Shown piece after piece: positions 4,407 to 60,339 of a DNA stretch of 64,000 nt. Position 1 is the stretch's first letter, and every line of letters starts with the position of its first letter. Under the pieces are notes generated by a model that saw only the letters and a list, made by a program, of their open reading frames with translations, did no database searches and was not told where the DNA came from. The translations under genes were made by a program, and so were the position numbers. The stretch covers positions 249,798,001-249,862,000 of the forward strand of contig OZ024743.1 in NCBI GenBank assembly GCA_964016885.1. The letters are read 5' to 3'. This DNA is from Eledone cirrhosa. Its lineage: Eukaryota.

Positions 4407-4703
4407 TTATAACTTTGAAAACCACTTATGCATCTACTTATTCTGATGACATATATATATATATATACATAAATATATATATATATATGTATATATATTA
4501 TATATATATAACGGAGGAAATGTGGTAAGGAACCAGGTGGACCATAACGCACCAAAGTACTCAATACTTAGGGTAGTAGAGTGGGTAATAGGAACGAGTA
4601 GGACCCCGACGGCAGAGCTCAAGCCGTTTTGACGGCTAATTCTGGAGTCCAGAATTAGCCGTCGAAACGGCTTGAGCTCAGCCATCGGGGTCCTACTCGT
4701 TCC

Positions 4704-4735
<32 letters not shown>

Positions 4736-4863: not shown

Positions 4864-4869
<6 letters not shown>

Positions 4870-5411
4870 GTTATACTTTGGGAGGGTCATGTTGCCAATA
4901 AGAAACACACGCACCAGTTGCTTTCACTTCAATTTAATTTATTAAATATTTATAAGTTTACAAATTTATAAATTTATAAATTTCTGGTTGGTTGGTTGGT
5001 TCCACAACTAGATAGTTGTTTATATATATATAGTCATAGTTCTTTCGTCACACACTCTGTGACCTCTTCAGTGACTGGGGATTTCTTTCTTCGTTTCTGT
5101 GCCTTTCCTTTCTTCTATCCTACGCCATTTTGTTTGTCACAAACAAAATGGCGTAGGATAGAAGAAAGGAAAGGCACAGAAACGAAGAAAGAAATCCCCA
5201 GTCACTGAAGAGGTCACAGAGTGTGTGACGAAAGAACTATGACTATATATATATAAACAACTATCTGGTTGTGGAACCAACCAACCAACCAGAAATTTAT
5301 AAATTTATAAATTTGTAAACTTATAAATATTTAATAAATTAAATTGAAGTGAAAGCAACTGGTGCGTGTGTTTCTTATTGGCAACATGACCCTCCCAAAG
5401 TATAACAATAT
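4864..5411. repeat. Near-perfect ~550-bp palindrome carrying two hammerhead motifs
   Basis: Arms of about 273 bp are centred on C5138 (ccattttgtttgt-c-acaaacaaaatgg). I saw one mismatch. Flanked by (TA)n. Confidence 0.95.
5200..5244 (+). ncRNA. Minimal type I hammerhead ribozyme (mirror copy 5032-5076 on minus)
   Basis: agtca-CTGAAGA-g-gtcaca(gagtg)tgtgac-GAAA-gaac-TA-tgact: 5-bp stem I, complete core, 6-bp stem II, minimal stem III. Confidence 0.85.
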
Positions 5412-13165: not shown

Positions 13166-13554
13166 TTAATATAGAAATGACTTCTACAGGACTAGAACAC
13201 TGTTTCATTCGAAGGAAATCATCAGGAAAGCCTGATGATTTCCTTCGAATGAAACAGCTTTAGTCTTGTAGAAGCCATTTCTATATTAAATATTTATACT
13301 CTGCAATATATATAATATATATATATTTATATATATATATATAATTCATGCATAAATGATTAGTTATAATAATTTTTTTGCTGTGAAAAATCTTACAATT
13401 TAAAAATTCACAACCAAAATTCTAGGCATTTTATAATTGAGTTCTATCACATCATCTTACCATAATGTTCTATCATAGCACCCACTAATAGAGTTCTATC
13501 ATCGCATTTTCTCTCAGAGTTCTATCCTAAAGTTCTATCACACCATTCTATCAT

Positions 13555-13742
13555 AATTGTTTCTACTTTTGGCACAAGGCCAGCAATTACCCAGTACATT
13601 ACTGGTACTTTATTTTATCGACCCCGTAAGGATGAAAGGCAAAGTTACCCTCGGCGGGATTTGAACTCAGATCATAAAGGGACGTAACTCTATGCTTCAA
13701 AGCATGGTGTCCGACTCTCTACCGATACTGCCAATCCACCAA
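13555..13742 (-). mobile_element. tRNA-derived SINE family D (other copies near 8.4, 16.0-17.4, 20.8-21.2, 43.9, 50.1, 57.6-58.3 and 58.9-59.9 kb)
   Basis: Minus-strand head TGGCAGTATCGGTAGAG (A-box-like) and GAGTTCAAATCC (B box). The ~190-bp body is repeated many times, with (ATT)n tails. Confidence 0.85.
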
Positions 13743-14126: not shown

Positions 14127-14428
14127 CTTTCAGTCATCAGAATGAAAAAATCCTGGATTTTTTCATTCTGATGACTGAAAGCAAATTATGTTTGCTTTCA
14201 AGAAACCACTGGTAAATGAAATAATTATCTTATGTTGTTTATTACATAACTATATATATATATAAAAAAATAATTTCCGGCTGGTTGGTTGGTTCCACAA
14301 CTGGACAGTTGTTCATATATTGTCAAAGTTCTTTCGTCACACATTCTGTGACCTATTCAGTGACTGGGGATTCTTTTCTTTGTTTTGTGCCTCTCCTTTG
14401 TTCTGTCCTACGCCATCTTGAATCCCCA

Positions 14429-14471
14429 GTCACTGAAGAGGTCACAAAATGTGTGACGAAAGAACTTTGAC
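14429..14471 (+). ncRNA. Hammerhead ribozyme motif in an inverted repeat (14272-14521)
   Basis: gtca-CTGAAGA-g-gtcaca...tgtgac-GAAA-gaac-TT-tgac. The mirror copy at 14322-14364 has a mutated core (CTGAATA). Confidence 0.8.
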
Positions 14472-14556
14472 AATATATGAACAACCGTCCGGTTGTGGAG
14501 CCAACCAACCAGCCGGAAATTTATTAAAAAAATGAAAAAAAAAAAAATTTTTTTAA

Positions 14557-16477: not shown

Positions 16478-18792
16478 GGATAAATAATTTAAATGTAGGC
16501 ACAATGTCAGTTATTTTAATGAAGGCCAGTGATTAAATCAAACTCAGTACTTTACTGGTACTTTATTTTATTAACTTTAGAAGGATGAAAGGCAAACTTG
16601 GCATCAGAATGTAAAGAAGCAGAACAAATACTATAATTGTTTCTACTTTAGGCACAAGGCCAGCAATTACCAGTGCATTACTGGTACTTTATTTTATCGA
16701 CCCCGTAAGGATGAAAGGCAAAGTCAACCTCGGCGGGATTTGAACTCAGATGGTAAAGGGACGTAACTATGCTGGAAAGCACAAATACTATAATGCATTT
16801 TGTTTGGCTTCTAATGATTCTGTCAATCAACCACCATAAATAATAATAATAATTGTTTCTACTTTTGGCACAAGGCCAGCAATTACCCAGTGCATTTATT
16901 TTAATATAAATAATAATGATAATGATTTCTAGTATAGCCCAAGGCCAGTAATTTGGGGGGAGGGGAAAGTCGATTAAATCGACTCCAGTACGTGACTGGT
17001 ACTTTATTTTATTGACCCTGTAAGGATGAAAGGCAAAGTTAACCTCGGCAGGATTTGAACTCAGATCATAAAGGGCCGTAACGCTACGCTGCAAAGCATG
17101 GTGTCCGACCCTCTACCGATACTGTCAATTCATCACCCTTTTTAATAATAATGATAATAATAATTGTTTCTTCTTTTAGCATGAGACCAGCAATTATCCC
17201 AGTGCATTACTGGTTCTTTATTTTATCGACCCCGTAAGGATGAAAGGCAAAGTTAACCTCGACGGGATTTGAACTCGGACCGTAAAGTTCAAATCCCGTC
17301 GAGGTTAACTTTACCTTTCATCCTTACGGGGTCGATAAAATAAAGTACCAGTAATGCACTGGGATAATTGCTGGTCTCATGCTAAAAGAAGAAAAAAATA
17401 TTATTATCATTATTATTAAAAAGGGGTGATAATGATAATAATGGCAAAGAAGTAAAAAAATATATGGTTCTGTTCTTATGGTAGTGGCAGTGGTAAAATG
17501 TATGAAGGATATCACTCTAATAATGTCCAGGTAAAAACAACTGTTCTTCTCCAACCCCAAACCCAGTCACATCTTACAGATATCTGTTATGGAGGCATAT
17601 TGCCTACATCTTACAGATATGTGTTATGGAGGCATATTGCCTACATCATCTTCAATAGACTGCATGAATAGTGCAAGCTATCTATCTATCTCTCTATCTA
17701 TCTATATGTATATGATATGCAAATGTTATATGTATTATGTTTTGCATAAATAATTGCTAATTAACTGTTTCTGATTAACTTATTGTTTACATATACATGT
17801 ACCATTATCACCTGTCTAGAAATATATGTAGAAATTACAGAATGGATTTAAGTTGTTAACCTTGGTTTTTCTTCATTTTAAATATATATATATATATATT
17901 GTTATATTTGGGGAGGGTCAAATTGTTATAACATTGCCAGATATAATAATAAAACAAACACACTGTGAGTGTGTTTTATTATTATATCTGGCAATATTAT
18001 AACAATATGACCCTCCCCAAATATAACAATATTTGTTTCAACACATGATTTCATATCAAAAACCTTGCAAAACACACACACACACAGATATATATATATA
18101 TATATATATATATTGTTTTTTGCTAATTTCCAATAGCCGAAATGCGATTCTCGCTAATTTATATTTGTATATATATATATATATATCACGATAAATTAAT
18201 GGAGCCATATATACATGTGTGTGTGAGTATATAGTTACTTGAATACAATTTTGTATAATGAAAGAATGAGCCCTTGATATGTAAACATAGAGGTTTTTAA
18301 CATTATTCTTTAATGACATCAAATTTTTGTGTACCCTTCACCGGCTTGACCTCTTTTCATAGCCAAAGTATTCTTTTCATTCAAAGTATTCTTCCCTTTC
18401 AAAACTTAAGTCTGCATTCCTCTACCCCTAAATTAAATTTCTACTACTACTATTCTATCAACTTGACCACTTACTACTTTTCTATTGGTCAATTCAAAAC
18501 CTGTTCCCAAACAGACCTATTATATTAAATCTTTGTTGGTTTTATTTCAATAAACAAATCTCATTATTTCTGAAGACAGCATATATATTGGAAGGTATGT
18601 ATATTTCCTCTGATAGTTTGTAATATTTTTACATAGATCTATATGATATACATACCATCACACATATATATCCTAGAAACGATTGTAAAATGATGAATTT
18701 TTTAATATAAGGAACTTGTTCTTCGTTTTTATTCATTGTTTTTATTAATTTATATATATATATATGCTTAAACTTTAATCTGTTATTTTATT

Positions 18793-20525: not shown

Positions 20526-22506
20526 TCCATATATATTATGCCTCCATATATATAATGGGCTTCCACAGTTTCTGTGCACTAAATTCTATTCACAAAGTGT
20601 TGGCCAAATAGAGGCAATAGTAGAAGACAACCTATGTTATAACTGTATAGCTATTTTCTTCACCTTTCACAATCGTTATGGTCTGTCAAAAATGTTATCA
20701 TTTAGATTTCACTGAATACGAATGTAAAAGGGGAGAGAAGATGGCAAATGTTTGAAAATGCTTTGATTCCCACCAGAAATCAATTTTCTCTGTCAATAAT
20801 TGTTTCTACTTTTGGCACAAGGCCATCAATTACCCAGTGCATTACTGGTACTTTTATTTTATCGACCTCGTAAGGATGAAAGGCAAAGTTAACCTCGGTG
20901 GGATTTGAACTCAGACCGCAAAGGGACGTAACTATGCTGGAAAGCATGGCGTCTGACCCTCTACCGATACTGCCAAGCCACCACTCTGTCAATAATGTCT
21001 ATCTATCTATTTTTCTCAATCTCTGTGTGTACTCACAAATAGACACACATATAATTGTTTCTACTTTTGGCACAAGGCCAGCAATTATCCCAGTGCATTA
21101 CTGGTACTTTATTTTATCGACCTTGTAAGGATGAAAGGCAAAGTTAACCTTGGTGGGATTTGTATTTAGACCGTAAAGAGACGTAACTATGCTGGAAAGC
21201 ATGGCGTCCGACCCTCTACCGATACTGCCAATTCACACACATATAATGATAATGATGATGCACATTTATGTATGTGTGTGTGTGTATATATGTATAGTTA
21301 TAGATGCACATACACACACAGGTGGTTCATAAACACACCCCACAAACATAGCATTGTTGTTAGAGTTTAATGAAGAAACAAAATATTACGTCTTCCCCTC
21401 ATGAAACAATGTCTTCATTTGCTTGAAGATACTACTGATACTAAATAAAACCATGCTTTAGTCTTGTAAGGTAGTTAACCATGCTTTAGTCTTGTAAGGT
21501 AGTTAATTGTATGACATTGCACATACCAACAAATACACAGAAAGCCTCACAACTATGCATAGGCGGTCACAAACACACAGGCATATATATATGTATTTGT
21601 TGGTATGTGCAATGTCATACAATTAACTACCTTACAAGGTTTCTCTAGTATCAGTAGTATCTCCAAGCAATATATATATATATATATATAAATGTAAGTA
21701 TGAATGTATACGTACATACATATATGTATACAGACGTACAGTAGTATGTATATATATACACACATGCACACTGTGTCAGTGTTGAACAAAAGGGCGACGA
21801 TGGTTGCTTGAACACTGTATGGCGTAATTCGGGCTGTTTGTTTACAAACAAACAAACCGAGCATTATAATAAATGTTCGGTAAACCGATACGTACATATA
21901 TTTATGTGTGCATGTGTGTATATATATACATACTACTGTACGTCTGTATATATATATGTATGTACGTATACATTCATACTTACATTTAAGTATCAGCCAT
22001 ACAAAGAGTGAGAAATGAAATTTCGTTTCATTCTTTTCCATTTATATATATATATATATACATAAAATATATATACCTAAAAAATATATACCTAAAAAAT
22101 ATATACATATATGTATGTATAATATAGCCATTTGAAAAATGAAGGTCCTAAAAAAACAGTAGGTATATATTATCACAAATAAAATGATCTGTGCAAATAT
22201 GAAGTCAGACAGTAACCAATATTGCTGCATAATATCGTTATTATGTAAATATATGAATGTGTGGGTTGGTGATTATATATATATATATATATATGCATAT
22301 ATATATATGATGATGATGATATATAGATACATATACATATATATACATATACATATACATATACACATATATATACATATATATATACATATTTATATAC
22401 ATACATATATATAGAGAGAGATACATATACATATATACATATATACACATATACACACGTATATATATATACATATATATAGAGAGAGATACATATACAT
22501 ATATAC

Positions 22507-22539
<33 letters not shown>

Positions 22540-22759
22540 GTATTTACGTATCGAGAAAGAGAGAAAAAAAGGAGGGATAGGTGATACATATAGTTATTTG
22601 CCAAGTAGCGTATGCCAAAGGTGCTCGATACTAGTGCCGGCAGTATTAAATATTCGAAGTGTTAATATTTAGTGGGCTAGAGAGTTAGCAGAGCGTAAGC
22701 ACGTGGGAAAGTGAAAAATCGGAGAATAGACCGTTAAAACATGTTTATTTAAAATATCA

Positions 22760-22796
22760 CCTACGTACGTTTCGCCCAGTTGGGCTTCTCAAGGGC
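22760..22796 (-). ncRNA. Hammerhead motif with U3-A8 core variant
   Basis: cc-TTGAGAA-gccca(ac)tgggc-GAAA-C-gtac-G-TA-gg. Stem III region is palindromic (ACGTACGT), and stem I is short. Confidence 0.65.
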
Positions 22797-23465
22797 ATAA
22801 ACAATCACAAGTGTTCCTTATATAGTTCGGAAAGAGTTTTGGGGGTTAAGTCCACATCAAGATTCATTGTTCGCAAAAATATCTTGTTTTGATTTTGCAG
22901 CAGGTCAAGGGAGGTAACTTTGGCCGGTGTTAGGGCAGTCTTTCCCGGATAATTTTTGGTATGCAGGGATTGTTTTCTGGGTGTTATTTTGCTGCGCCTG
23001 CCGGCCGGGGTGTTAAGACTTGTTGCAGGGAGATCCAGTGTGCTATTTCACTCTTCATTCTTAACCCATCTAAAGAAGGATATTTTTAAGCGATGTGTAC
23101 AACTTATCGCTGTTTCATATATATACATATATATATACATATATATATATACATATATATATATACATACATATATATATATATTCATTTTCATCATTTC
23201 ATTTCACATCCGCTTTTTCCCTGCTTGCAAGGGTGAGACGGGAACTGATTCTGGCTTGATTTCTACACCAACCTCATTTACAGTGAGTGCTGGGTGCTTT
23301 TTTGCCGTGGCACCTCCACGACCACTTTGCATTTCTACAGGTGAGTAAACTGGAGCAATGTGAAATAAAGTGTCTTGCTCAAGGAAACAACACATCACCG
23401 GGTCTGAGAATTGAACTCACAACCTTTCGATTGCAAGGCCAATGCTCTAACCACTAAGCCATGTG

Positions 23466-23746: not shown

Positions 23747-23791
<45 letters not shown>

Positions 23792-23979
23792 ACAGGGAGA
23801 AGGCACCAGAGTACTTATTACTTAAGGTAGTAGCGTGGGTAATAGGAAAATGTATGACCCTGACGGCAGAGCTCAAGCCGTTTCGACAGCTATTTCTGGA
23901 AAGAAATAGCCGTTGAAAAGGCTTGAGTTTAGAATATATCCATCTGTACACACACACACACACACACACACATAGACAT

Positions 23980-26927: not shown

Positions 26928-27005
<78 letters not shown>

Positions 27006-27065
27006 TATGTGTGTATATATATATATATATATGTATAAATATATATATATGTATATGTATATATG

Positions 27066-27161
<96 letters not shown>

Positions 27162-27392
27162 ATGTATATATATATGTATAAATATATATGTATGTATATA
27201 TATGTATATATATATAAATTTATGTATATATATGCATATATGTATATATATATATATATATATATGTATACATATATATGTATATATATATGTAAAAATA
27301 TATATTTGTATATTTATGCATATATATGTATATGTATATATACATGTATATATATATATATATATGTATGTATATATATATATATGTATATG

Positions 27393-27426
<34 letters not shown>

Positions 27427-27546
27427 TATGTATATGTATATATATATACATATATATATATATATACATACATATATGTATATATATATATGTATATATA
27501 TACATACATATATGTATATATATGTGTATGTATATATATATATATG

Positions 27547-27621
<75 letters not shown>

Positions 27622-27627
<6 letters not shown>

Positions 27628-30600
27628 AATAATAACAGGTAGACATCATAAAAAGGTAATTTATTCCGTGTGCTTACAAGTGTTTCCACGGTGGTACTGC
27701 AGCCTAGTTCCGCTACGTGCAAATTCACAAGTATTTGCAGAACTCGAATATCCAATGCTGTGACCACTGTTTCCTCAGAGCAGAATGGTAAATGTACAAT
27801 GTAAAAACCCTTATATGGAAAGGCATCATATAGGTATGTCACTTAAAAACATACCTATACCTAACAAAAGGGAATATATTCTCAGTATGATTCAACGCAG
27901 TAACGACTTCATTCGGTGTGTACGATGGAAAGCTTTCCACTTCGATAAAGGACGCGCCAGTCACTCGTCTGAATCATATGGTTTTAAATCATGTAAAAAC
28001 CCACCCACAAACCCTCACCTCGAAGCTTTCGAACAGGACTTATTGAAAACTACCATGAACATTAAGTTCAACAGACATAGAAATAATGAGCTGCAGAGCA
28101 ACATGAAAGCACTACTCCGAAGATTGCAAAATACCAATGGAATTGTTGTGAAAGCTGACAAGACCTCTAACGTGTATACCATGGATATCGATACGTATAA
28201 TAACTTCATACGTAACGAACTACACAAAAAAATATAGAAAAACAAATGAAACTACGCTAGCAAATATTAACAACGAGGCATATAAAGTGGTAAAGAATCT
28301 CAAGATAGACGATAGAACCGAGCCGATTATACCCGCTACCCCCACCTTCAACCTGAAGGACCATAAGGTAAATTTTGACTCTAACCCTAAGATTAGACTT
28401 ATATGCCCTTCTAAATCAGACATAGGAAAAATTAGTAAACATATACTTGACAGAGTAATAACTCAAGTGAAAAAGAAAATTGAAATTAAATTATGAGGCA
28501 ACAATAGCGAAGCAATTCGCTGGTTTAATAATGTTAAGAATAAGAATAAATCTAAGTTTATACAATTTGACATAGACGAATACTACTCTTCCATCTCACC
28601 AAGCACTTTACGTAAGGCCCTATCGTTTGCTAAGGCCAATTCCGACCTAACAGAGGACGAAATTAATATTATTCTCGAGGCTAGAAAAACCATTATTAAG
28701 TTCGATAACTGCTACTGGGAACGTAAGGACAGACCCACAAATTTCGATATTACCATGGGTTCCAACGACTCGGCGGAGGTCACGGATCTCGTGGGAATTT
28801 ACATAGCCCACATATTACATAGTAGATTTAGTAATCTACAGGGGGGGGGGGGATATATAGAGATGACGGGCTCTTATTAGTTAATAACTTGAATAACCAA
28901 AATCTTGAAAGGCTACGGAAAAATATTAGAAAATCTTTTAGTGAACTGGGTCTAAAAATAACATACGAATACAATCTTAAAGTAGTAAACTTTCTGGACG
29001 TAACTCTTAATTTAAATACCGGACAGATACGACCCTTCCACAAGGTAAATGAGAACCTTACGTATATTGACTTTAACTCTAACCACCCACTCTCCATGAT
29101 CAAATCAGTTCCCCGGAGTATTTCTCTTAGAATCTCTCGCCTATCGTCTAACTCTGATATTTTTAGTGAACATGCTGAATGCTACAATAATGCATTAAGG
29201 AATGCTGACCACCGGGATACAATAGAATACATCGATAGTAATTTCCACAACACACATAGCTCTACACGTAATCAAGGTATACGTAACCGGGGGACTAAAA
29301 CACAAGCACACACACACGGTACTACCAGACATACTAATAATAGAAGATCACCACCAAATAAATCACGTTGTAGAAAGTATATCTGGTATAATCCTATTTT
29401 TAATGCCTCGATTAGTACAAAACTATCTCTTTCATTCTTTAAATTAATCAATAAACACTTCCCTAGTTCCCATAAGTACAGCAAAATTATGAACTCTAAA
29501 ACTATTAGACTATCATACTCCACGGCACCAAACCTTGAAGCATACATAAAAAAACTTAACGTAAGGCAATTAAACAACTCTACAAAACAAAACATTTTAG
29601 TAACAGATGGGCAGAACGCAATATCTGCCTCCCAACCACTAAATGGGAGACGGGTATTGCACAACCCACCTGTACCGCTATCACAACCTATCCATGGTAT
29701 ACCCGCTACCCACAACAAAGAATGTAACTGCCATCTACCTGAAAGATGTCCATTGCAGAATGAATGCCTAAAGTCCAACATTGTTTACCAATGCACGGTT
29801 GAATCGAACGACCAGAAATGGTATTATATCGGATCTACCACCACATCGTTTAAATCTCGCTGGTACCGTCATCGATTCTCAATCAAACATCCGAATCACC
29901 GTTTTGTGACCACGCTCGCCAACAAGACCTGGCAACTCCGTGAACACAACCAACAGTTCACCTTAAAATGGGATATACTTTCCAGCGCAAATGCATATCG
30001 GAGTGGATTGAAGTACTGCAGGTTATGTAACCTTGAGCTATTTTACATACTAAAATCCAAAAACAAACTACTTAACGATAGAATTGAACGATCATTATAC
30101 TGCAACCACAAACTAAAAGCTAAATTCTCTCACTATAAAATAACTTAACATTCGAACCCGTAACTACAACACCACTTTCTAGCTAACAACCTTCTCTTCC
30201 CCCCACACTACAAGACAATACACTGCTTATCACTATACATGGTAACTCAGTACAATTCCTAGATTACTACTACAAAAACAAAAGTTCACTCACCACACAT
30301 ACTTTATCTATCCTCTCTCTACCTATATATCTCTCTCTACATCCATTACACTCTCTCTCTCTCACCTTTGACCTACCTCCCTCTCAACATCTATGAACCT
30401 GCCCTCTGGGGCAATACATAATTCCGACCTCAACTATCTACGCATCTCTCCAAAAGTAACTAATAAAACCCCTACCATAACATTTTGATTAAGATATCTA
30501 CAAGCCACTCTCTCCTACTTCTCCAACCCCTGCATATCTTTCCTTCTCTCTCCTTCTTCCCTACTTTTCTCTCTTCCTGTTCCACTCTATCTTCCCCAAC

Positions 30601-30948
30601 AACCTCACTTAAGGGTTTTTACATTGTACATTTACCATTCTGCTCTGAGGAAACAGTGGTCACAGCATTGGATATTCGAGTTCTGCAAATACTTGTGAAT
30701 TTGCACGAAGCGGAACTAGGCTGCAGTACCACCGTGGAAACACTTGTAAGCACACGGAATAAATTACCTTTTTATGATGTCTACCTGTTATTATTCATTC
30801 TTTATATACACTCCGGAATACTGAAGGATCAGGAACTAAGTTTCTTGAACAATTCTTCCATAACTCGTAGAGTAACCTCTTACCGTACGTCAACCATATC
30901 CAGTGTAGTAATTAACCATCACTACATCTTGGATAATCCTATACCTAA
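27622..30948 (+). mobile_element. Penelope-like retroelement (RT + GIY-YIG), probably Naiad-type, with inverted 5' pseudo-LTR; disrupted ORF about 27815-30148
   Basis: Motifs [58 protein letters not shown]...YIGST and CRLC..CNH. Two homopolymer frameshifts (about 28230 and 28845) and a TGA at 28494. 27622-27813 is the reverse complement of 30610-30801. (TA)n lies on both sides. Confidence 0.93.
30641..30752 (+). ncRNA. Type I hammerhead with extended stem II in the Penelope pLTR (mirror copy 27671-27782 on minus)
   Basis: tgct-CTGAGGA-a-acagtggt...(cagc/gctg; tgcaaat/atttgca)...accaccgt-g-GAAA-C-actt-G-TA-agca. Confidence 0.75.
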
Positions 30949-31040
30949 TATATATATATATGTGTGTATATATATATGTATATATACATATATATATACA
31001 TATATATATATGCATATATACATATATATATATATACACA

Positions 31041-31073
<33 letters not shown>

Positions 31074-31082
31074 GTATATAAG

Positions 31083-31113
<31 letters not shown>

Positions 31114-31447
31114 ACATATATATATATGTATACATATGTATATATGTATACATATATATATATGTATACATATGTATATATGTATACATATATATATATA
31201 TGTATACATATATATATATGTACATATATAAATATATATACATGCACACACATATATATATATGTATACTTACACATATATATACATTCATATATATATA
31301 TACATACACATATATATATATATATGTATACTTACACATATATACATTCATATATATATATATATATATATACAAACATATAAATATATAAATACATACA
31401 TATATTCATACATATAAACATATTCATACATATAAACATATTCATAC

Positions 31448-31504
<57 letters not shown>

Positions 31505-32094
31505 ATTTCTGTACTATTCAGTTTCTGTTAGTGTAACCAGTTATTGTAGAGTGATTATGTAAGAAGAATCTGAAGCCTTGATTTATTTCATTTGGTAAAT
31601 CCAGATGTAGTTCAACTATAATTTTCCAAATGTATCAATTTACAGAGTAATTTATAAAAATTATTTAACTCACCACATTCCAGAAGAGTACGATTTTAAA
31701 AATTTGTTTTGTCTACATACAATTTTTTAAGTAATCGGATTTGATTTAATTTGATTGAAAGAATCAAAGTTAGCAATCCTTGACAGATTATATAACACAT
31801 ACAAAGAAACATGTGTCAGTGTTATGCAATAAATGATAATGTCACTCTTCTGGAATGTGGTGTTTTAAATAATTTATATATATATATATATATATATAAA
31901 TATAATGAAGGAATTGTGGTAAGGAACCAGATGGACCATAACGCACCAGAGTACTCAATACTTAGGGTAGTAGAGTGGGTAATAGGAAAAAGTATGACCT
32001 GGACGGCAGAGCTCAAGTCGTTTCTACGGCTATTTCGAAATGGCTTGAGCTCTGCCGTCGGGGTCATACCTTTTCCTATATATATATATATATA

Positions 32095-32877: not shown

Positions 32878-32908
<31 letters not shown>

Positions 32909-33192
32909 AATCAGGATAGAACCAGTTTAAAACTGATTAGATCATTAATGAACAGAGTACTTGATACTTGGGGTAGTAGAGTATGGCTATATTATAAAGA
33001 GTCAGGACCCAACGGCTGAGCTCTTACCATTTCAACAGCTAGTTCCAGTCTGGAACTAGCTGTTGAAACACACACATACACATGCACACACATATATATA
33101 TTTTATGGTAATATATATGTACATATATATATATACTGTATATATACACACACATATGGACATATATATATATATATATACACATATATATG

Positions 33193-33226
<34 letters not shown>

Positions 33227-33868
33227 TATATATGCATATATATATATACATCACACACTCAAACGTCTATCTATCTATCTATATATATATATATATATGG
33301 TGGCTGCCAACTCGTTTTCGAGTACGGCCACTACTTTATATCCATGTAGGAGAACCCCTACCGATACGCTGAACGAGTGTGACTTTTTAGTCCAGCCAGC
33401 GACTTGAAAACTCTGGTACAAACACTACACTTGTGACAATTATTGACACATAGTGCTGGGCCCATGGTACCATGTGACGACAAGTGCAGAGAGATCTCCA
33501 GATATAAAGTAATGGCTGTGCCGTGAAGCTTTTATAGTGAGCAAAGGCACTGCACAAAGCCAGTCCCACTCTCTTAACCAAGATGATATTTACCAAAAAG
33601 AAGAACAAGTCAACATCATTGGATACCATCAGGGTTGCAGGTGTTATATCAGAGTTTTCCTTCTAGAATTCTGCCTTGACAAAGGTTAAGGGGTCATCTC
33701 TCCCGGTGATTTTGGATGGCCATTGACTCTTAAGAGCTCCTTTGCCCTTTGATATATATACTTATATATACGCACACACATATATATATACACATCACAC
33801 ACTCAAACATCTATCTATCTATCTATCTCTCTCTCTCTATATATATATATATACTTATATATACACAT

Positions 33869-38945: not shown

Positions 38946-41900
38946 TTTTGTCAGATAGAATGTCCCTGGATTACAAACAGCCAGCCTTATTACACATTTT
39001 GTCAGATAGTCTGTTCCTGTATTACAAACAGCCAGCCTTATTACACATTTTGTCAGATAGTCTGTTCCTGTATTACAAACAGCCAGCCTTATTACACATT
39101 TTGTCAGATAGACTGTTCCTGTATTACAAACAGCCAGCCATATTACACATTTTGTCAGATAGACTGTCCCTGTATTACAAACAGTCAGCCTTATTACACA
39201 TTTTGTCAGATAGACTGTTCCTGTATTACAAACAGCCAGCCTTATTACACATTTTGTCAGATAGACTGTTCCTGTATTACAAACAGCCAGCCTTATTACA
39301 CATTTTGTCAGATAGTCTGTTCCTGTATTACAAACAGCCAGCCTTTTTACACATTTTGTCAGATAGACTGTTCCTGTATTACAAACAGTCAGCCATATTA
39401 CCCATTTTGTCAGATAGACTGTTCCTCTTTTACAAACAGCCAGCCATATTACACATTTTGTCAGATAGACTGTTCCTGTATTACAAACAGCCAGCCTTAT
39501 TACACATTTTGTCAGATAGTCTGTTCCTGTATTACAAACAGCCAACCTTATTACACATTTTGTCAGATAGACTGTTCCTGTATTACAAATAGCCAGCCAT
39601 ATTACACATTTTGTCAGATAGACTGTTCCTGTATTACAAACAGCCAGCCATATTACACATTTTGTCAGATAGACTGTTCTTGTATTACAAACAGTCAGCC
39701 ATATAACACATTTTGTCAGATAGACTGTTCTTGTATTAAAAACAGCCAGCCATATTACACATTTTGTCAGATAGTCTGTTCCTGTATTACAAACAGCCAG
39801 CCTTATTACACATTTTGTCAGATAGACTGTTCTTGTATTACAAACAGTCAGCCATATAACACATTTTGTCAGATAGACTGTTCTTGTATTACAAACAGTC
39901 AGCCATATAACACATTTTGTCAGATAGACTGTTCCTGTATTACAAACAGCCAGCCATATAACACATTTTGTCAGATAGACTGTTCCTGTATTACAAACAG
40001 CCAGCCTTATTACACATTTTGTCAGATAGACTGTTCTTGTATTACAAACAGTCAGCCATATAACACATTTTGTCAGATAGACTGTTCTTGTATTACAAAC
40101 AGTCAGCCATATAACACATTTTGTCAGATAGACTGTTCCTGTATTACAAACAGCCAGCCTTATTACACATTTTGTCAGATAGTCTGTTCCTGTATTACAA
40201 ACAGCTAGCCTTATTACACATTTTGTCAGATAGACTGTTCTTGTATTACAAACAGTCAGCCATATAACACATTTTGTCAGATAGACTGTTCTTGTATTAC
40301 AAACAGTCAGCCATATAACACATTTTGTCAGATAGACTGTTCTTGTATTACAAACAGCCAGCCATATTACACATTTTGTCAGATAGAATGTCCCTGTATT
40401 ACAAACAGCCAGCCATATTACACATTTTGTCAGATAGACTGTTCCTGTATTACAAACAGCTAGCCTTATTACACATTTTGTCAGATAGACTGTTCCTGTA
40501 TTACAAACAGCTAGCCATATAACACATTTTGTCAGATAGACTGTTCCTGTATTACAAACAGCTAGCCTTATTACACATTTTGTCAGATAGACTGTTCCTG
40601 TATTACAAACAGCTAGCCATATAACACATTTTGTCAGATAGAATGTCCCTGTATTACAAACAGCCAGCCTTATTACACATTTTGTCAGATAGACTGTTCC
40701 TGTATTACAAACAGCCAGCCTTATTACACATTTTGTCAGATAGTCTGTTCCTGTATTACAAACAGCCAGCCTTATTACACATTTTGTCAGATAGAATGTC
40801 CCTGTATTACAAACAGTCAGCCTTATTACACATGTTGTCAGATAGACTGTTCCTGTATTACAAACAGCCAGCCTTATTACACATTTTGTCAGATAGTCTG
40901 TTCCTGTATTACAAACAGCCAGCCTTATTACACATTTTGTCAGATAGTCTGTTCCTGTATTACAAACAGCCAGCCTTATTACACATTTTGTCAGATAGAC
41001 TGTTCCTGTATTACAAACAGCCAGCCTTATTACACATTTTGTCAGATAGTCTGTTCCTGTATTACAAACAGCCAGCCTTATTACACATTTTGTCAGATAG
41101 TCTGTTCCTGTATTACAAATAGCCAGCCATATTACACATTTTGTCAGATAGACTGTTCCTGTATTACAAACAGCCAGCCTTATTACACATTTTGTCAGAT
41201 AGTCTGTTCCTGTATTACAAACAGCCAGCCTTATTACACATTTTGTCAGATAGAATGTCCCTGTATTACAAACAGTCAGCCTTATTACACATGTTGTCAG
41301 ATAGACTGTTCCTGTATTACAAACAGCCAGCCTTATTACACATTTTGTCAGATAGTCTGTTCCTGTATTACAAACAGCCAGCCTTATTACACATTTTGTC
41401 AGATAGACTGTTCCTGTATTACAAACAGCCAGCCATATTACACATTTTGTCAGATAGACTGTTCCTGTATTACAAATAGCCAGCCATATTACACATTTTG
41501 TCAGATAGACTGTTCCTGTATTACAAACAGCCAGCCATATTACACATTTTGTCAGATAGACTGTTCCTGTATTACAAACAGCTAGCCTTATTACACATTT
41601 TGTCAGATAGACTATTCTTGTATTACAAACAGTCAGCCATATAACACATTTTGTCAGATAGACTGTTCCTGTATTACAAACAGCCAGCCTTATTACACAT
41701 TTTGTCAGATAGACTGTTCCTGTATTACAAACAGCCAGCCTTATTACACATTTTGTCAGATAGTCTGTTCCTGTATTACAAACAGCCAGCCTTATTACAC
41801 ATTTTGTCAGATAGTCTGTTCCTGTATTACAAACAGCCAGCCTTATTACACATTTTGTCAGATAGACTGTTCCTGTATTACAAACAGCCAGCCTTATTAC

Positions 41901-43689
41901 ACATTTTGTCAGATAGTCTGTTCCTGTATTACAAACAGCCAGCCTTATTACACATGTTGTCAGATAGAATGTCCCTGTATTACAAACAGCCAGCCTTATT
42001 ATACATTTTGTCAGATAGTCTGTTCCTGTATTACAAAGAGCCAGCCTTATTACACATTTTGTCAGATAGACTGTTCCTGTATTACAAACAGTCAGCCATA
42101 TTACACATTTTGTCAGATAGTCTGTTCCTGTATTACAAACAGCCAGCCTTATTACACATTTTGTCAGATAGTCTGTCCCTGTATTACAAACAGCCAGCCT
42201 TATTACACATTTTGTCAGATAGACTGTTCCTGTATTACAAACAGCCAGCCTTATTACACATTTTGTCAGATAGTCTGTTCCTGTATTACAAACAGCCAGC
42301 CTTATTACACATTTTGTCAGATAGACTGTTCCTGTATTACAAACAGCCAGCCTTATTACACATTTTGTCAGATAGACTGTTCCTGTATTACAAACAGCCA
42401 GCCTTATTACACATTTTGTCAGATAGTCTGTTCCTGTATTACAAACAGCCAGCCTTATTACACATTTTGTCAGATAGACTGTTCCTGTATTACAAACAGC
42501 CAGCCTTATTACACATTTTGTCAGATAGACTGTTCTTGTATTACAAACAGTCAGCCATATAACACATTTTGTCAGATAGACTGTTCCTTTATTACAAACA
42601 GTCAGCCTTATTACACATTTTGTCAGATAGACTGTTCCTGTATTACAAACAGCCAGCCTTATTACACATTTTGTCAGATAGAATGTCCCTGTATTACAAA
42701 CAGTCAGCCATATAACACATTTTGTCAGATAGTCTGTTCCTGTATTACAAACAGCCAGCCTTATTACACATTTTGTCAGATAGTCTGTTCCTGTATTACA
42801 AACAGTCAGCCTTATTACACATTTTGTCAGATAGACTGTTCCTGTATTACAAACAGCCAGCCTTATTACACATTTTGTCAGATAGACTGTTCCTGTATTA
42901 CAAACAGCCAGCCTTATTACACATTTTGTCAGATAGTCTGTTCCTGTATTACAAACAGCCAGCCTTATTACACATTTTGTCAGATAGTCTGTTCCTGTAT
43001 TACAAACAGCTAGCCTTATTACACATTTTGTCAGATAGACTGTTCCTGTATTACAAACAGCCAGCCTTATTACACATTTTGTCAGATAGTCTGTTCCTGT
43101 ATTACAAAGAGCCAGCCTTATTACACATTTTGTCAGATAGACTGTTCCTGTATTACAAACAGTCAGCCTTATTACACATGTTGTCAGATAGACTGTTCCT
43201 GTATTACAAACAGCCAGCCTTATTACACATTTTGTCAGATAGTCTGTTCCTGTATTACAAAGAGCCAGCCTTATTACACATTTTGTCAGATAGTCTGTTC
43301 CTGTATTACAAACAGTCAGCCTTATTACACATGTTGTCAGATAGACTGTTCCTGTATTACAAACAGCCAGCCATATTACACATTTTGTCAGATAGACTGT
43401 TCCTGTATTACAAACAGCCAGCCTTATTACACATTTTGTCAGATAGACTGTTCCTGTATTACAAACAGTCAGCCTTATTACACATGTTGTCAGATAGACT
43501 GTTCCTGTATTACAAACAGTCAGCCTTATTACACATTTTGTCAGATAGTCTGTTCCTGTATTACAAAGAGCCAGCCTTATTACACATTTTGTCAGATAGA
43601 ATGTCCCTGTATTACAAACAGCCAGCCATATTACACATTTTGTAAGATAGTCTGTTCCTGTATTACAAAACAGCCAGCCTTATTACACA
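38946..43689. repeat. 51-bp tandem array, 93 units
   Basis: Unit ttttgtcagatagactgttcctgtattacaaacagccagccttattacaca. Register is kept at 39001, 40021, 41041, 42061 and 43081, with a single +1 A near 43670. Confidence 0.98.
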
Positions 43690-44265
43690 TTTTGTCACAC
43701 TGAATCTCCCTATGGAATACTCAACCATATAGACTATAATACAAAGTGGAGTGTATCTATAATTCAAATGGCCAGCCTTTTTCACATATTGTGACTGTGT
43801 TACACAGCATTTCCCTGTGAATTACATTAATGATACACATGTCTGAGAAAAACTCAGTCACTTAGACTATAATTGTTTCTACTTTTGGCACAAAGCCAGC
43901 AACTACCACAGTGTATTAATGGTCCTTTATTTTATTGACCCCATAAGGATGAAAGGCAAAGTTAACCACTCGGCGGGATTTAAACTCAAATCATAAAAGG
44001 CCATAACTCTATGCTACAAAACATGACATCCGACCCTCTACTGACACTGCCAATCCACCACCCTTAGATTATAACGCAAGATAAATGGTACCTGTAATTC
44101 AAAAAGCCAACCTTATCAGAGTGGACTACACAGAGTCTCCCTGTGAATTATGTTAAAGGTACACGTCTTGGGAATGCTCAGCCACTGACATGTTAATACC
44201 GCAAGCTATCTAGCTGTTCCATTGATCAAACAACTGCACTACACATCGTGGTCCACTCCATTCCA
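43690..44265 (+). mobile_element. Fragments of a dispersed repeat (probable SINE) related to the 51-bp unit, interrupted by a family D SINE
   Basis: Two similar segments at about 43750-43862 and 44085-44190 (tccctgtgaatta...tacac...ctcag.cact). Confidence 0.5.
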
Positions 44266-44395: not shown

Positions 44396-45141
44396 ACAAT
44401 AACAATCAAAAGAAATATAGACATCATAGCTATGAAGTTTCAATGTTGCAGAAAATAATTTAGCAAGTGTGAAAAAAAAAAGAAAAGAAAAACGTAAAAC
44501 GATGATGATGCTGTTTAGTTCAAAGCAATGAGGCTAATGGTACGTAAGTTACATCAAAGATGACCTGAGAAAGAAAAAAGAAAGACATTTTTTATGTAAC
44601 TTATAGGGGAGACTACACTTGGTAAAATACAAAATAATTTGATGGGTTTGATGGCTAGATTGCACTAAAGATTATATTAAAAGGTGCAAGTATGGCTGTG
44701 TGATTAATGAGTTCACACACACACCTATGTGTGTATGTGTATGTATATATATATATATATAAATTTATATGTATATATATTTAAGCTAACGAGGTATCGT
44801 TTAAGACAATCCAAGTAGAGGTTATGTGTACTCTGTGCCGAGTATAGTTCTAACACTTGGCGTTATTTGGCTCAACAAGATGTTAACTTAGTTGTGGTGT
44901 TCAGGTGGCCGATTCCAGACTGTTCCTACGTAAGTGGTTCCTTTATATATAAATAGTTTGGATCTAGCTGTCGAAACGGGCGGAGCTCAGCCGTCAGGGT
45001 CTTGAATCTTTTCCTATTACCCACTCTACTACTCTAAGTATTGAGTACTCTGGTGCCTCTGGTCCACCTGGTATCTTACCACACCTTCTTTGTTTGTTAT
45101 ATATATATATATATATATATATGCGTGTGTGTGTGTGTATG

Positions 45142-55444: not shown

Positions 55445-56590
55445 AGTGCAAGCCATGTATAGAGGAGTTGTCAGTAAAGTGAGAGTAAGAAATGAGTTTA
55501 GTGAGGAATTCAAGGTACAGGTAGAAATTCATCTTAGCTCACTGATATTCATCATAGTTTTCCAGGCCTTAACAGACGAGTTTAAGAGTGGCTGTCCATG
55601 GAAACTTCTCTATGTGGATGATATGGTTCTATTAGCTGAATCTATAAAAGAACTAGAGAGTGAGTTCTGACTATAGAAATAGAATTTGGAATTAAAAGGT
55701 CTGAAAGTAAACTTAGCCAAAACTCAAGTGCTAGTGAGTAGGAGAAAAATAGGGCCCTGATTACCCCAGTGATATGGCCCTGCTCAATACCTAGAAAAGA
55801 AGTAGGCATAAACTCTATAAGAGGTACACAATGTAAATCTTGGGTATACAAGAGATGTAGAGTGATAACAGGTAGACTAACAGGAAGGGAAGACATTATA
55901 TGTAGAATGTGACCAGGAGTAATCAAGGGTAAGAGCATCAGTATATAAACCTTTTCTAGGCCCAGGAAGGGTCCACACTAGTGGTTGATAGCTTCTGCTA
56001 TCTAAGGTGACTTAATTAGCAGTGGAGGAAGGTGCTCTGAGAGCATAATAGCTAGAATAAGAATAGGATGGAAGAAATTTTGAGAGCTACTCTAAAAGGT
56101 TTCTCTCTACATAAAAAAGGATAACTGTATGATGTTTGCGTGTGATGTGCAATGCTGCATGATAATGAAACATGAGCTGTGACTGCAGAGGACATTCATA
56201 GGCTGAAGAGTAATGAAGCAACCATGCTTCATTAGATTTCCAATGTAAATGTGAGAGAAAGGCAGAGCTTGGATGAACTGAGGGAGAAACTAGGTTTAAG
56301 AGGAATTTGAAGTGGTGTGCAAGAGAAAAGACTGCATTGGTATGGATATGTGATGTGCAAGGATAATGATAGCCGGGTGAAGAAGTGCCAGAAAAGCCCA
56401 GTGGAGAAAAGCCACAGTAGAGGTAGATCAAGAAAGACCTGGGCAGAGGTGGTGAGAGCTGATCTTAAATTGCTGAGACTGACAGAGGAGATGATGAAGG
56501 AACACTGTGTTGAAAATGACCTGTCAAACCCATGCAAGTATGGAAAAACAGACGTAAAAACTATAATGGTGATGGTGGTGATGATGATGA
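55445..56590 (+). mobile_element. Decayed RTE LINE 3' half
   Basis: AMYRGVVSKVRV, GCPWKLLYVDD, RLHWYGYV and a (GAT)n tail. Confidence 0.85.
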
Positions 56591-57362: not shown

Positions 57363-58299
57363 GAGTGAGAAGGAGAAGGGGAGAGGGGGAAGGGGGAGAA
57401 AGAGAAGGACAAAGGAAGAAGGGGGAGAAAGAGAAGGAGAGAGGAGGAAGGGAAGAGAAAGAGTGAACTTGGAGAAAATGAAAAAAAGTTAATCAGATTT
57501 TATTAACGAACTTGAATTTCTAAAAGGAAAAAAAAAAGATAATATAAAGAAAATCTAACTGAAAAGGAGATCTTTATTTCGGCTTACACATACATACACA
57601 TACATACACATACAGATATATGCCGATATACACACACTCTAATAATAATAGTTTCTATATTTGGAACAAGACAAGCAATTTGAAAGGAAGGGGAAAGTCG
57701 ATTAAAGCAACCTCAGTGCATTACTGGTACTTTATTTTATTGACTCTGTAGGGGAAGAAAGGTAAAACTAACTTCAATGTACTTTGAACGCAAAACTTCA
57801 AGTGGTGTAACTATATGCTGCAAAGCATATAGTACAATACACAACCGATACTGCCATTCCATTGCCCTCGCCCTAATAATAATAATAATAACAATAATAA
57901 TAATAATAATAATTGTTCTACTTTTGGCACAAGGCCAGTAATTACCCCAGTGCATTATTGGTGCTTTATTTTATCGACCCCGTAAGGATGAAAAGCAAAG
58001 CTAATCTCAGTAGGATTTGAATTCAGATCATAAAGGGCCGTAACTCTTGCTGCAAAGCATGGTGTCCGACACTCTACTGATACTGCCAATCCACAAATAA
58101 TAATGATAATAATAATAATAATAATTGTTTCTACTTTTGGCACAAGGCCAGAAACACCCCAGTGCATTATTGGGGCTTTATTTTATCAACCTCGTAAGGG
58201 TGAAAGCCAAGTTAACCTGGACAGATTTGAGCTCAGAACGTAAAGGGCCATAATTCTATGCTGCAAAGCATGGTGTCTGATGTTCTACCGATACTGCAA

Positions 58300-58850
58300 A
58301 AAAGTGATTCACTGGCATTTATGCAAACTAAATAATTTACCACATTCTGGGAAGTGGTATGAGCATAAGCCAGAGCCGGTGATAAAAAATGATTGAGTGA
58401 AGGTGTTATGGGATTTCAGGATACAGACAGACAAGAAATTAGAACACAATAGGTCTGACCTGGTGGTTTTCGACAAAGAAAAAAGATTATGCCTGATTGT
58501 AGATGTAGACTGCTCCATTGACACGAGAGTGCAAGAAAAGGAGAAGAAGAAAATTAACCGATACCAGGATTTAAGTGGGAGTTAAAAAGGGTTTGGGACT
58601 GTCATGAGATCAAGGTCGTACCGATTGTCATAGGAGCACTAGGTACTATCTTGAAGAATTTTCAAGGATGGTTAAAGAACATTAGTCCAGCTGCCTTTTT
58701 TGGAACACTTCAAAAGGCATGCTTGCTGGGAACAGCAAGAACCCTCCAATAAGTCCTGAATATCTGAGGCTGCAGGTAATGGCTCGATGTTCATTTGAAC
58801 AAACTTTCCAGTTAAATAACATCAATGACTGAGCCTCAAAGAAAAATAAT
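58300..58850 (+). mobile_element. R4/Dong LINE 3' end (restriction-like endonuclease domain)
   Basis: IHWHLCK...WYEHKP...VLWDFRIQTDKKLEHNRSDLVV...EKEKKKINRYQDL, VPIVIGALG, then a TAA-type tail. Confidence 0.85.
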
Positions 58851-60339
58851 GATAATAATTGTTTCTACTTTTGGCACAAGGCCAGCAATTATTCCAGTGT
58901 ATTACTGGTACTTTATTTTATCGACCCCGTAAGGATGAAAGGCAAAGTTAACCTCGGCGGGAATGATTTCTGATTTAGGCACAAGGCCAATAATTATTTG
59001 GGAAGGAGAAAGTCAATTAAATCGACCCAGTGCATTACTGGTGCTTTATTTTATCGATCCTGTAAAGATGAAAGATAAAGTTAACCTCAGTGAGATTTGA
59101 ACTCAGACCGTAAAGAGCCGTAACTCTATGATGCAAAGCAAGGTGTCCTATGATCTACTATTACTGCCAATCGACTGCCCATAATAATAATAATAATAAT
59201 GATAACAATAATAATAACAATAATAGTAATAATAATTGTTTCCTATATAGGCACAAGGCCAGCAATTTTGGGGGGAGGGGAAAGTCGATTAAATCGACCC
59301 CAGTGCGTGACTGGTACTTTATTTTATCGACCCCGTAAGGATGAAAGGCGGGTTCTAGTATAGGCACAAAGCCAGTAATTTGTGGGGATGGGAAAGTTGA
59401 TTAAATCAACGTCAGTATGTTACTGATGCTTTATTTTATTGAGCCTATGAGGTTGAAAGGTAAAGTTGACCTTGATGAGATGTGAACACGGAATGTAAAG
59501 AGCCAGAACAAATACTGCAAAGTATTTTGTTTGATGCTCCATACTGCCTGTCATCATAAGATCACATGATTTTAACAATATTAGAAGGAAGACTGAGAAG
59601 ACTTCAACAGGATTTGAACTCAGAATGTGAGAGGTTCAACAAGACATTTTATTGGCTGCTCTACCATCCCTTCCCCTCTATAGGCATAAAGTGAAGAATT
59701 TAAGGTGAATGGTGAGTAGATTAAATAGCCCAACTACTTGACTGGTAGGTGCAAAATTGGCAGAATCATTAGACCATGAGACGGAGTGCTTTAAAGTATT
59801 CAGTTTGGCTCTCTGTGCTCTAAGTTCAAATCCTGCCATGGTCAACTTTATCTTTCATCTTTTCAAGGTCAATAAAAAGAATACCAGTTCAGTCGTGGGA
59901 ATTGATTCTTCCTCTACATCACTTTCTCCTAAAAGGTTTGCTAAACACACAAACTGAAATCACTTGGCATCGCGGTCGAGATTATATCTATCTCTATACC
60001 CACTCTGCATCTCCCCATGCATAGAGTACTCCCATGATTAGTGGGATCTTTGGTTTTAGCACTGAAGCAAGATTGGTCAGATGACTGTGTCTTGCTCATA
60101 TAGAACTGTTTCTGGCAGGTTTTCTAAGGGCATCCAGACGTAGAAAACCTGCCAGAAACAGCTCTATATGAGCGAGACACGGTCACCTGACCAATCTTGC
60201 TTCCAGTGGGACAAACCCATCCAACCCATGCTAGCGTGGAAGATGGACTTAAACGATGATGATGATGATGATTATATATATATATATTTATATATATGTA
60301 TATATATATATCATATGTATAGGTATATATCCATATATG

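Follow-up and report, generated by a model that had tools for sequence, protein, structure and literature searches.

The 64-kb window, by which we mean the whole stretch of DNA analysed, contains what we regard with reasonable confidence as a decayed, ORF-length copy of a high-copy Penelope-like element (PLE) of the Hydra clade, inserted into (TA)n, likely by target-primed reverse transcription. By prediction, its type I hammerhead motif has to dimerize or be helped by protein in order to cut multimeric transcripts, and the 85-nt stem II of this ribozyme is likely a tolerated appendage. Beyond this single copy we lean, with more caution, toward a reading for the whole clade. Hydra-clade PLEs would carry, between hammerhead and start codon, a twice-repeated bulged hairpin that has not been described and that positions internal starts of reverse transcription, hence the "tail" of some copies. 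This hairpin and stem II would have grown long internal arms in the host lineage, so that standard descriptors miss the ribozymes, and short non-autonomous repeats would hitch-hike by means of the compact hairpin.

Architecture of the element

The element spans positions 27622-30948 with (TA)n tracts on both sides, and its features are listed in Table 1. The first-pass annotation had described an RT/GIY-YIG ORF within (TA)n, 192-bp inverted pLTR copies with one mismatch, and an inversion joint at the probable start. All of this was borne out: an RT ORF with a C-terminal GIY-YIG domain lies between the two tracts, 27622-27813 and 30610-30801 agree at all but one position, and the ATG at 27815, 1 nt beyond the inversion junction, corresponds in alignments to residue 1 of relatives of full length. 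The sole mismatch between the arms is at 30708, where all aligned depth in the four runs compared below has the letter of the 5′ arm. At a distance of 53 nt beyond the cleavage site predicted for its hammerhead, the inverted arm gives way to (TA)n. The 3′ end of the main copy reaches 147 nt past the shared arm, which the first-pass annotation did not mention. From the stop codon to the hammerhead core, the 3′ UTR measures 496 nt, compared to 61-515 nt in relatives. For PLEs and for the Hydra clade it is usual to find an inverted 5′-truncated copy and targeting of TA (Craig et al. 2021, PMC8557442, section 11 and legend of Fig. 2).

Elsewhere in the 64-kb window no sequence resembling the element was found, and among the contig matches listed there was no joint connecting 30948 with the ATG. 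Viral contigs contained no protein relative, and none of their 43 exact 15-mer matches was accompanied by further pLTR similarity.

Table 1. Positions of the element, of its parts and of related features. Positions refer to the window, except for the two last lines, which refer to the respective related loci.
Feature	Position	Strand	Remarks
Left (TA)n-type microsatellite	27000..27621	.	Insertion target; continues further left
Inverted 5′-truncated second copy (pLTR arm)	27622..27813	-	191/192 identical to 30610-30801
Type I hammerhead motif in inverted arm	27671..27782	-	85-nt stem II
RT + C-terminal GIY-YIG ORF, Hydra clade by motifs	27815..30148	+	771 aa if its three breaks are read as X
A7 run, frameshift in this copy	28226..28232	+	One A fewer in 534/588 depth, run X1
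In-frame TGA private to this copy	28494..28496	+	G at 28496 in all aligned depth, X1 and X4
G12 run, frameshift in this copy	28841..28852	+	Five G fewer in four X1 contigs (754/4696 depth)
Long pyrimidine-rich 3′ UTR	30149..30640	+	
Type I hammerhead motif, main copy	30641..30752	+	
85-nt stem II	30652..30736	+	A.G mismatch at 10.1/11.1
147-nt putative tail	30802..30948	+	Only at 3′ end of main copy
Probable lengthened Hydra leader hairpin	30810..30873	+	8 nt past end of inverted arm
Second bulged hairpin in tail	30898..30934	+	ATCCA/TGGAT + 7 bp
Right (TA)n-type microsatellite	30949..31490	.	
Short TA-inserted repeat family, copies	4480-4706, 23747-23927, 31875-32093, 32890-33069, 44965-45122		
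Twin bulged hairpins, example L019	111-135 and 168-186		
Twin bulged hairpins, example L065	1877-1901 and 1939-1965		

Assignment to the Hydra clade

The translated ORF contains the motifs RWK, DKT, FDIDEYY, MGSND, YRDD and CxCx5C, VY..YIG without a pair of cysteines, CxxC..E and N..CxH. In the available text of Craig et al. 2021 (PMC8557442), RWK, DKT, a CxCx5C linker, the lack of CCHH, CxxC..E and N..CxH are given as diagnostic of the Hydra clade. As in that clade, a single ORF, interrupted by three breaks in this copy, encodes the RT followed by a C-terminal GIY-YIG endonuclease (EN). RWK is found at residue 37, and the N-terminal GxKF/Y is absent. DKT takes the place of DKG (ADKT, residue 115); a DKG that occurs at residue 44 falls outside the motif position. 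The linker reads CNCHLPERC at residue 631, with no Cx2-5CxxC. CCHH is absent, VYQCTV..YYIG having one unpaired Cys only, and CRLCNLE and LN..CNH provide the CxxC and CxH that flank the E and N of the EN. The insertion into (TA)n is likewise a trait of the clade. In the supplement of the same paper, the matches to RWKA (3/3) and ADKT (9/9) lie in or beside Hydra-clade entries only.

On these diagnostic motifs we place the element among the Hydra-clade PLEs. The first-pass annotation was thus right in recognizing a PLE with a hammerhead in its pLTR, but the clades that it had proposed for comparison, Naiad, Neptune and Poseidon, do not include this element. Naiad/Chlamys is excluded, as the EN is C-terminal rather than N-terminal and DKA is lacking. 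Neptune, Nematis and Penelope/Poseidon are excluded by the absence of CCHH in the EN, of DKG and, for the first two clades, of a Cx2-5CxxC linker.

The nearest protein among 58 long relatives is only about 37% identical, so that, judged by its sequence, the family is new in the collections searched; its clade and architecture are known. A protein cluster look-up returned a name for one of eight proteins (Hydra vulgaris, uncharacterized). The loci L079-L087 are Hydra-type PLE ORFs within bacterial MAG contigs and most likely represent animal DNA binned into MAGs.

With Hydra-1_Obim and Hydra-1_Ajap (PMC8557442) the element shares ORF order, motifs and (TA)n target; the type I hammerhead with a near-palindromic stem III is also found in the clade, and the inverted 5′-truncated copy occurs likewise in Penelope-13_HM. 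Differences concern the unit, which from ATG to copy end comprises 3,134 nt versus "generally <3 kb" in the clade, and the tail, which has 147 nt here versus the 30-40 bp described for PLEs.

Decay of this copy

Contigs of four runs (X1, X4, X6 and X7) were aligned to 27814-30948; statements on variants refer to the 40 of 245 differences and 12 of 21 indels listed. In X1, 2,160 contigs fit this region, and their depth, which does not equal copy number, is about 950-1,560 in each of the five leading bins and reaches 40,000-128,000 over the pLTR. Such a 3′ bias is as expected of many 5′-truncated copies.

The first-pass annotation had noted two homopolymer frameshifts. Its G run (28841-28852, 12 G) was placed correctly, whereas its A run, given as about 28226-28233, in fact comprises 28226-28232 (7 A). 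A third break of the ORF, the in-frame TGA at 28494-28496, had been overlooked. In view of the depth of other copies at 28496, at the A run and at the G run (Table 1), the majority of the family is coding-competent and this copy has decayed. A reading of the TGA as selenocysteine is excluded, the codon ending in G in other copies. One low-depth X4 contig lacks the A-run deletion and carries the letters of this copy at 28198 and 28213, which is weak evidence that the A-run frameshift is genomic. Because the stop is a private substitution and because of this X4 contig, the breaks are probably for the most part real decay rather than read errors, the length of the G run aside. Taken on its own, the element is an ordinary copy of this family, and a dead one.

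The hammerhead and its 85-nt stem II

A hammerhead with stem I tgct/agca, CTGAGGA and GAAAC-actt-GTA had been noted before, and we found these parts, with an 85-nt stem II, in both arms. In the main copy, stem I is formed by 30641-30644 and 30749-30752, the core sequence CTGAGGA occupies 30645-30651 and GAAA 30737-30740, and cleavage is predicted after the GUA at 30748. CUGANGA, GAAA, an NUH site and three helices characterize the motif as a type I hammerhead. Stem III is near-palindromic, ACACTTGT, and has 3 bp in the monomer. Hydra hammerheads agree with it in the core, in a near-palindromic stem III of 8 nt and in having a mismatched 10.1/11.1 pair; in 46 relatives this pair is U.U in 23, G-C in 14 and A.G in none. 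The core of this motif near the 3′ end is canonical and stem II is not, and an Rfam scan of the window and the pLTR detected no hammerhead.

The claim that stem II is much larger than usual was confirmed. Its 85 nt compare to 10-31 nt (median 17) in 46 distinct plus-strand hammerheads from 41 of 87 related loci, found by a search that tolerated inserts of up to 150-220 nt, and to 12-26 nt in 26 published rows of Hydra hammerheads, counted by eye (supplement of PMC8557442). Within this window stem II measures 18, 27, 85 or 99 nt, indicating that its length is labile in the host. In the non-canonical motif of the plant element PLE-X1_sMoe (File S2 of PMC8557442) stem II already has about 52 nt. 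An open-access literature search found no description of a long stem II in Hydra-clade hammerheads. The PLE hammerheads described by Cervera and de la Pena 2014 (PMC4209133) show the same location in the pLTR, short stem I, enlarged helix II and dimer-type stem III, but their helix II of 7-8 bp was already termed "larger than usual", compared to about 26-31 predicted pairs over 85 nt here. That a hammerhead core can tolerate a large insertion is known from the discontinuous Clec2 hammerhead (Martick et al. 2008, via PMC6765202), which differs by its location in a mammalian mRNA 3′ UTR, an insert that is several hundred nt long and the lack of an active retroelement family.

Folded alone, the 85 nt formed a single imperfect rod without branches (-25.7 kcal/mol, z -2.25); this stability was reached by 15 of 500 shuffles, and in 7 of 500 the ends closed equally well. 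The whole 126-nt motif was no more stable than shuffles (z -0.05). The basal helices of stem II (30653-30660/30728-30735 and 30663-30666/30720-30723) are constant: they are kept with the family-majority alleles, while the tip refolds, giving two alternative tip folds. Among the differences listed, those of the majority inside the hammerhead are confined to 30677 and 30708. An X6 contig (30630-30792, 2 differences) and an X7 contig (30598-30748, 4 differences) span stem II without gaps; in one X1 contig (depth 4) the ribozyme is deleted. As contigs of other runs cross stem II ungapped, the long arm is a family trait.

In the monomer the predicted pairing probability of stem I was near zero (0.01), compared to a median of 0.04 among 40 relatives with full flanks. 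PLE hammerheads are dimer-dependent and slow and cleave poorly in vitro (PMC4209133), and in a Poseidon element insertion was unaffected by catalytic mutants (PMC11167929). Together with the A.G at 10.1/11.1, the 4-bp stem I, the 3-bp stem III and a constrained hammerhead fold lying 3-4 kcal/mol above the minimum free energy (MFE) structure, this would be compatible with a family whose hammerhead is inactive or nearly so and is carried along within the copied pLTR. We find this doubtful: the core positions, the GUA site and both arms of stem I are all intact and without a majority variant among the differences listed, and mismatched 10.1/11.1 pairs are common in the Hydra clade and occur naturally in hammerheads (PMC3088659).

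Alternatively, the long stem II could be functional and selected in the host lineage, as a protein-binding platform, a dimer contact or a two-state switch tuning cleavage, for which its two tip folds would be suited. Within 30641-30752 no indel was present among those listed, ungapped contigs occur in runs labelled as other organisms, and a protein-requiring PLE hammerhead has been described (PMC11167929). Moreover, an unrelated 99-nt stem II in the window (18577-18675) folds strongly (z -4.2) and opens similarly, with 2 bp, a mismatch and then a helix. The 85-nt and the 99-nt arm, however, have no significant sequence in common, and the fold of the majority-like 5′ arm is only slightly better than that of shuffles (z -1.32). 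The 3′ UTR, the protein linkers and the leader hairpin are lengthened too, suggesting a general expansion, and since the family is young, fixation of the arm is no evidence of selection. We therefore consider a function of the arm unlikely. A copy-specific insertion or assembly artefact is scarcely credible: homopolymer runs in the window do differ from other copies, but the long stem II is present on both arms and the region is covered by independent contigs from X1, X4, X6 and X7, two of which span stem II ungapped. As judged from the predicted folds, the 85-nt arm is most likely a tolerated hairpin appendage and no new catalytic part.

A bulged hairpin in the leader of Hydra-type relatives

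In relatives, the leader from hammerhead to ATG has 138-187 nt and carries the sequence GCUC..UN-GAGC-ACU, usually twice (for two examples, see Table 1). We collected 67 distinct instances from 43 of 87 loci, picked by sequence anchors alone and with loci counted regardless of kinship. With a 2-nt 3′ bulge, Watson-Crick upper pairs were formed in 63, 49 and 42 of the 67 instances versus 34, 21 and 17 after shuffling, whereas with bulges of 0, 1 or 3 nt upper pairing was at chance level. A second count of pairs is circular, its instances having been chosen by structure, and we rely on the anchor-only test instead.

The hairpin coincides with the ends of copies. In all 11 comparable loci, that is, those with both the upstream leader and the downstream copy available, the copy leaves the element at most 4 nt from the start of a hairpin, four times at the first and seven times at the second. 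Nine of these loci were recognized by pattern at 0-4 nt; L032 was placed by eye at 4, and L033 overshoots, at -4. Of the six new Hydra consensus sequences that accompany PMC8557442, four show the hairpin, and the words "hairpin" and "stem-loop" are absent from the main text of that paper. Rfam had no family for it in the 6 of 87 loci scanned, and an open-access literature search found no description of it.

For the Poseidon element Poseidon_Ac, Frangieh et al. 2024 (PMC11167929) showed that in vitro the RT initiates internally, at two sites between which the tail lies. Such starts inside the RNA at two tail-bounding sites, as well as the AT-rich target, would be shared with the elements studied here. 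In Poseidon_Ac, however, the start lies in a stem-loop of AC-rich sequence inside the ORF, and the available text of that paper gives no clade-wide motif, whereas in the clade of our element a covarying bulged leader hairpin lies just 3′ of the copy ends. Sequence comparison suggests that the leader hairpin likely positions the RT.

The hairpin might also set the copy ends as a DNA site that is cut by the GIY-YIG nuclease when resolving an intermediate, rather than as a signal for the RT. A one-sided, fixed 2-nt bulge with a freely covarying stem is typical of an RNA-protein site and argues against such a DNA site; the strand asymmetry, which would fit DNA, is slight (at the third upper pair, 8 G.U versus 2 A.C; none at the fourth). 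Craig et al. explain the tail by a resolution step that the EN carries out (PMC8557442), and the D. virilis tail is required for recognition of plasmid DNA by the EN (cited in PMC11167929), but the ends of the Poseidon tail coincide with RT start sites in vitro (PMC11167929). We regard a DNA site as improbable and retain the RT signal as the preferred reading.

Candidate hairpins in the tail of this element

After 30801, the main copy continues with TTATATAC, followed by ACTC-CGG, 48 nt and TCG-TA-GAGT-AAC. The hairpin ACTC-CGG..TCG-TA-GAGT is the MFE structure of an 84-nt segment with the alleles of this window as well as with the majority alleles, at a pairing probability of 0.3-0.4. In 400 shuffles, an NCTC-type match never occurred and any match occurred in 79. 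The hairpin was found after the search span had been widened, it is outcompeted and not the MFE structure in the full 147-nt tail, and a covariance model of the compact hairpin had no match in this element. For these three reasons the fold is a probable, but not certain, lengthened leader hairpin. We infer that 30948 is a second start site, that the 147 nt represent a tail and that a second hairpin follows past 30948.

In an unrelated TA-flanked piece, a canonical GCTC/GAGC hairpin whose loop measures 52 nt is found at 22694 (minus strand), 83 nt ahead of the TA end. This loop is a second sign of loop lengthening in this host.

Short repeat families and other features of the window

In the short TA-inserted family (Table 1), a fold-back head is present on several copies. 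The hairpin model is matched by three copies (E about 1e-5) with the ACTC/GAGT form, about 50 nt before the TA end, and the family is likely a non-autonomous Hydra-type passenger. In total, the window contains seven ACTC/GAGT bulged hairpins, compared to 0.3 per base-shuffled window. The first-pass annotation had seen no direct match between the element and short families, and we too found no significant sequence match. A homology of the tail to the short family, plausible by eye, was at chance level, since for the five copies between 293 and 1000 of 1000 shuffles attained a score as high. The same annotation had proposed the element class as candidate mobiliser. This gains indirect support for the class, as the leader hairpin of Hydra-type elements recurs in one short family, with ACTC/GAGT as in the element here; between the short family and this particular family there is no alignable homology. 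The hairpin matches support mobilisation of the short family by a Hydra-type element.

Several further features were observed. At 18561-18696 (plus strand) there is a second long-armed type I hammerhead motif with a 9-bp stem I and a 99-nt stem II (z -4.2), with (TA)n about 60 nt past the predicted cut; this locus contains no ORF remnant and has no significant similarity to the Hydra-clade element. A short fold-back piece that ends in (TA)n contains a Hydra-type hammerhead with a 27-nt stem II at 14161-14221 (plus strand). A near-perfect palindromic family is present at 4868-5408 and 14272-14521, the former with a hammerhead variant (GAAA-gaa-CTA, 18-nt stem II) on each arm. A TA-flanked piece at about 22540-23110 (minus strand) has a hammerhead-like motif with an altered core, TTGAGAA..GAAACGTACGTA, and after it the GCTC/GAGC hairpin with the 52-nt loop mentioned above. 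Bulged ACTC/GAGT hairpins with ACT behind them stand isolated at 60002 and 36697 (both plus strand). Two more candidates are likely due to chance and were rejected: one at 56203 has a 76-nt spacer and neither stem I nor closure, and one at 33257 has a microsatellite inside the loop.

A tandem array of about 4.7 kb with a 51-nt period and roughly 95% identity extends from 38946 to 43711. An abundant SINE-like repeat, which we take to resemble cephalopod SINEs, was found at 13550-13741, 16633-17430, 20795-21259, 43869-44060 and 57640-59349; its copy at 17132-17430 is folded back as a 300-nt palindrome. Judged by such repeats, the host may be a cephalopod.

Proposed mechanism and implications

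Insertion probably proceeds by target-primed reverse transcription. Multimeric transcripts would be cut by the hammerhead only as a dimer or with protein help, as the predicted folds suggest, and the GIY-YIG nuclease would nick (TA)n. The RT may bind the bulged hairpin of the leader (NCUC..UN-GAGN-A) and begin reverse transcription at the UA-rich bases immediately 5′ of this structure, in which case the hairpin itself is not copied. Two leader hairpins would offer two possible 3′ ends, with the stretch between them appearing as the tail; the first site (30801) would have been the starting point of the inverted arm, the second (30948) that of the main copy. In the host lineage, the loops of both ribozyme and leader hairpin may have been lengthened by added stems while the base of the helix was kept.

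The existence of long-armed hammerheads means that descriptor searches with short limits for stem II can undercount ribozymes in such genomes. How PLEs choose the start of reverse transcription and why tails are optional are still open questions in the field. A covarying hairpin found across the clade at copy ends would offer a precise mutational test in the existing in vitro format, and the same hairpin may serve as a signature for finding non-autonomous passengers.
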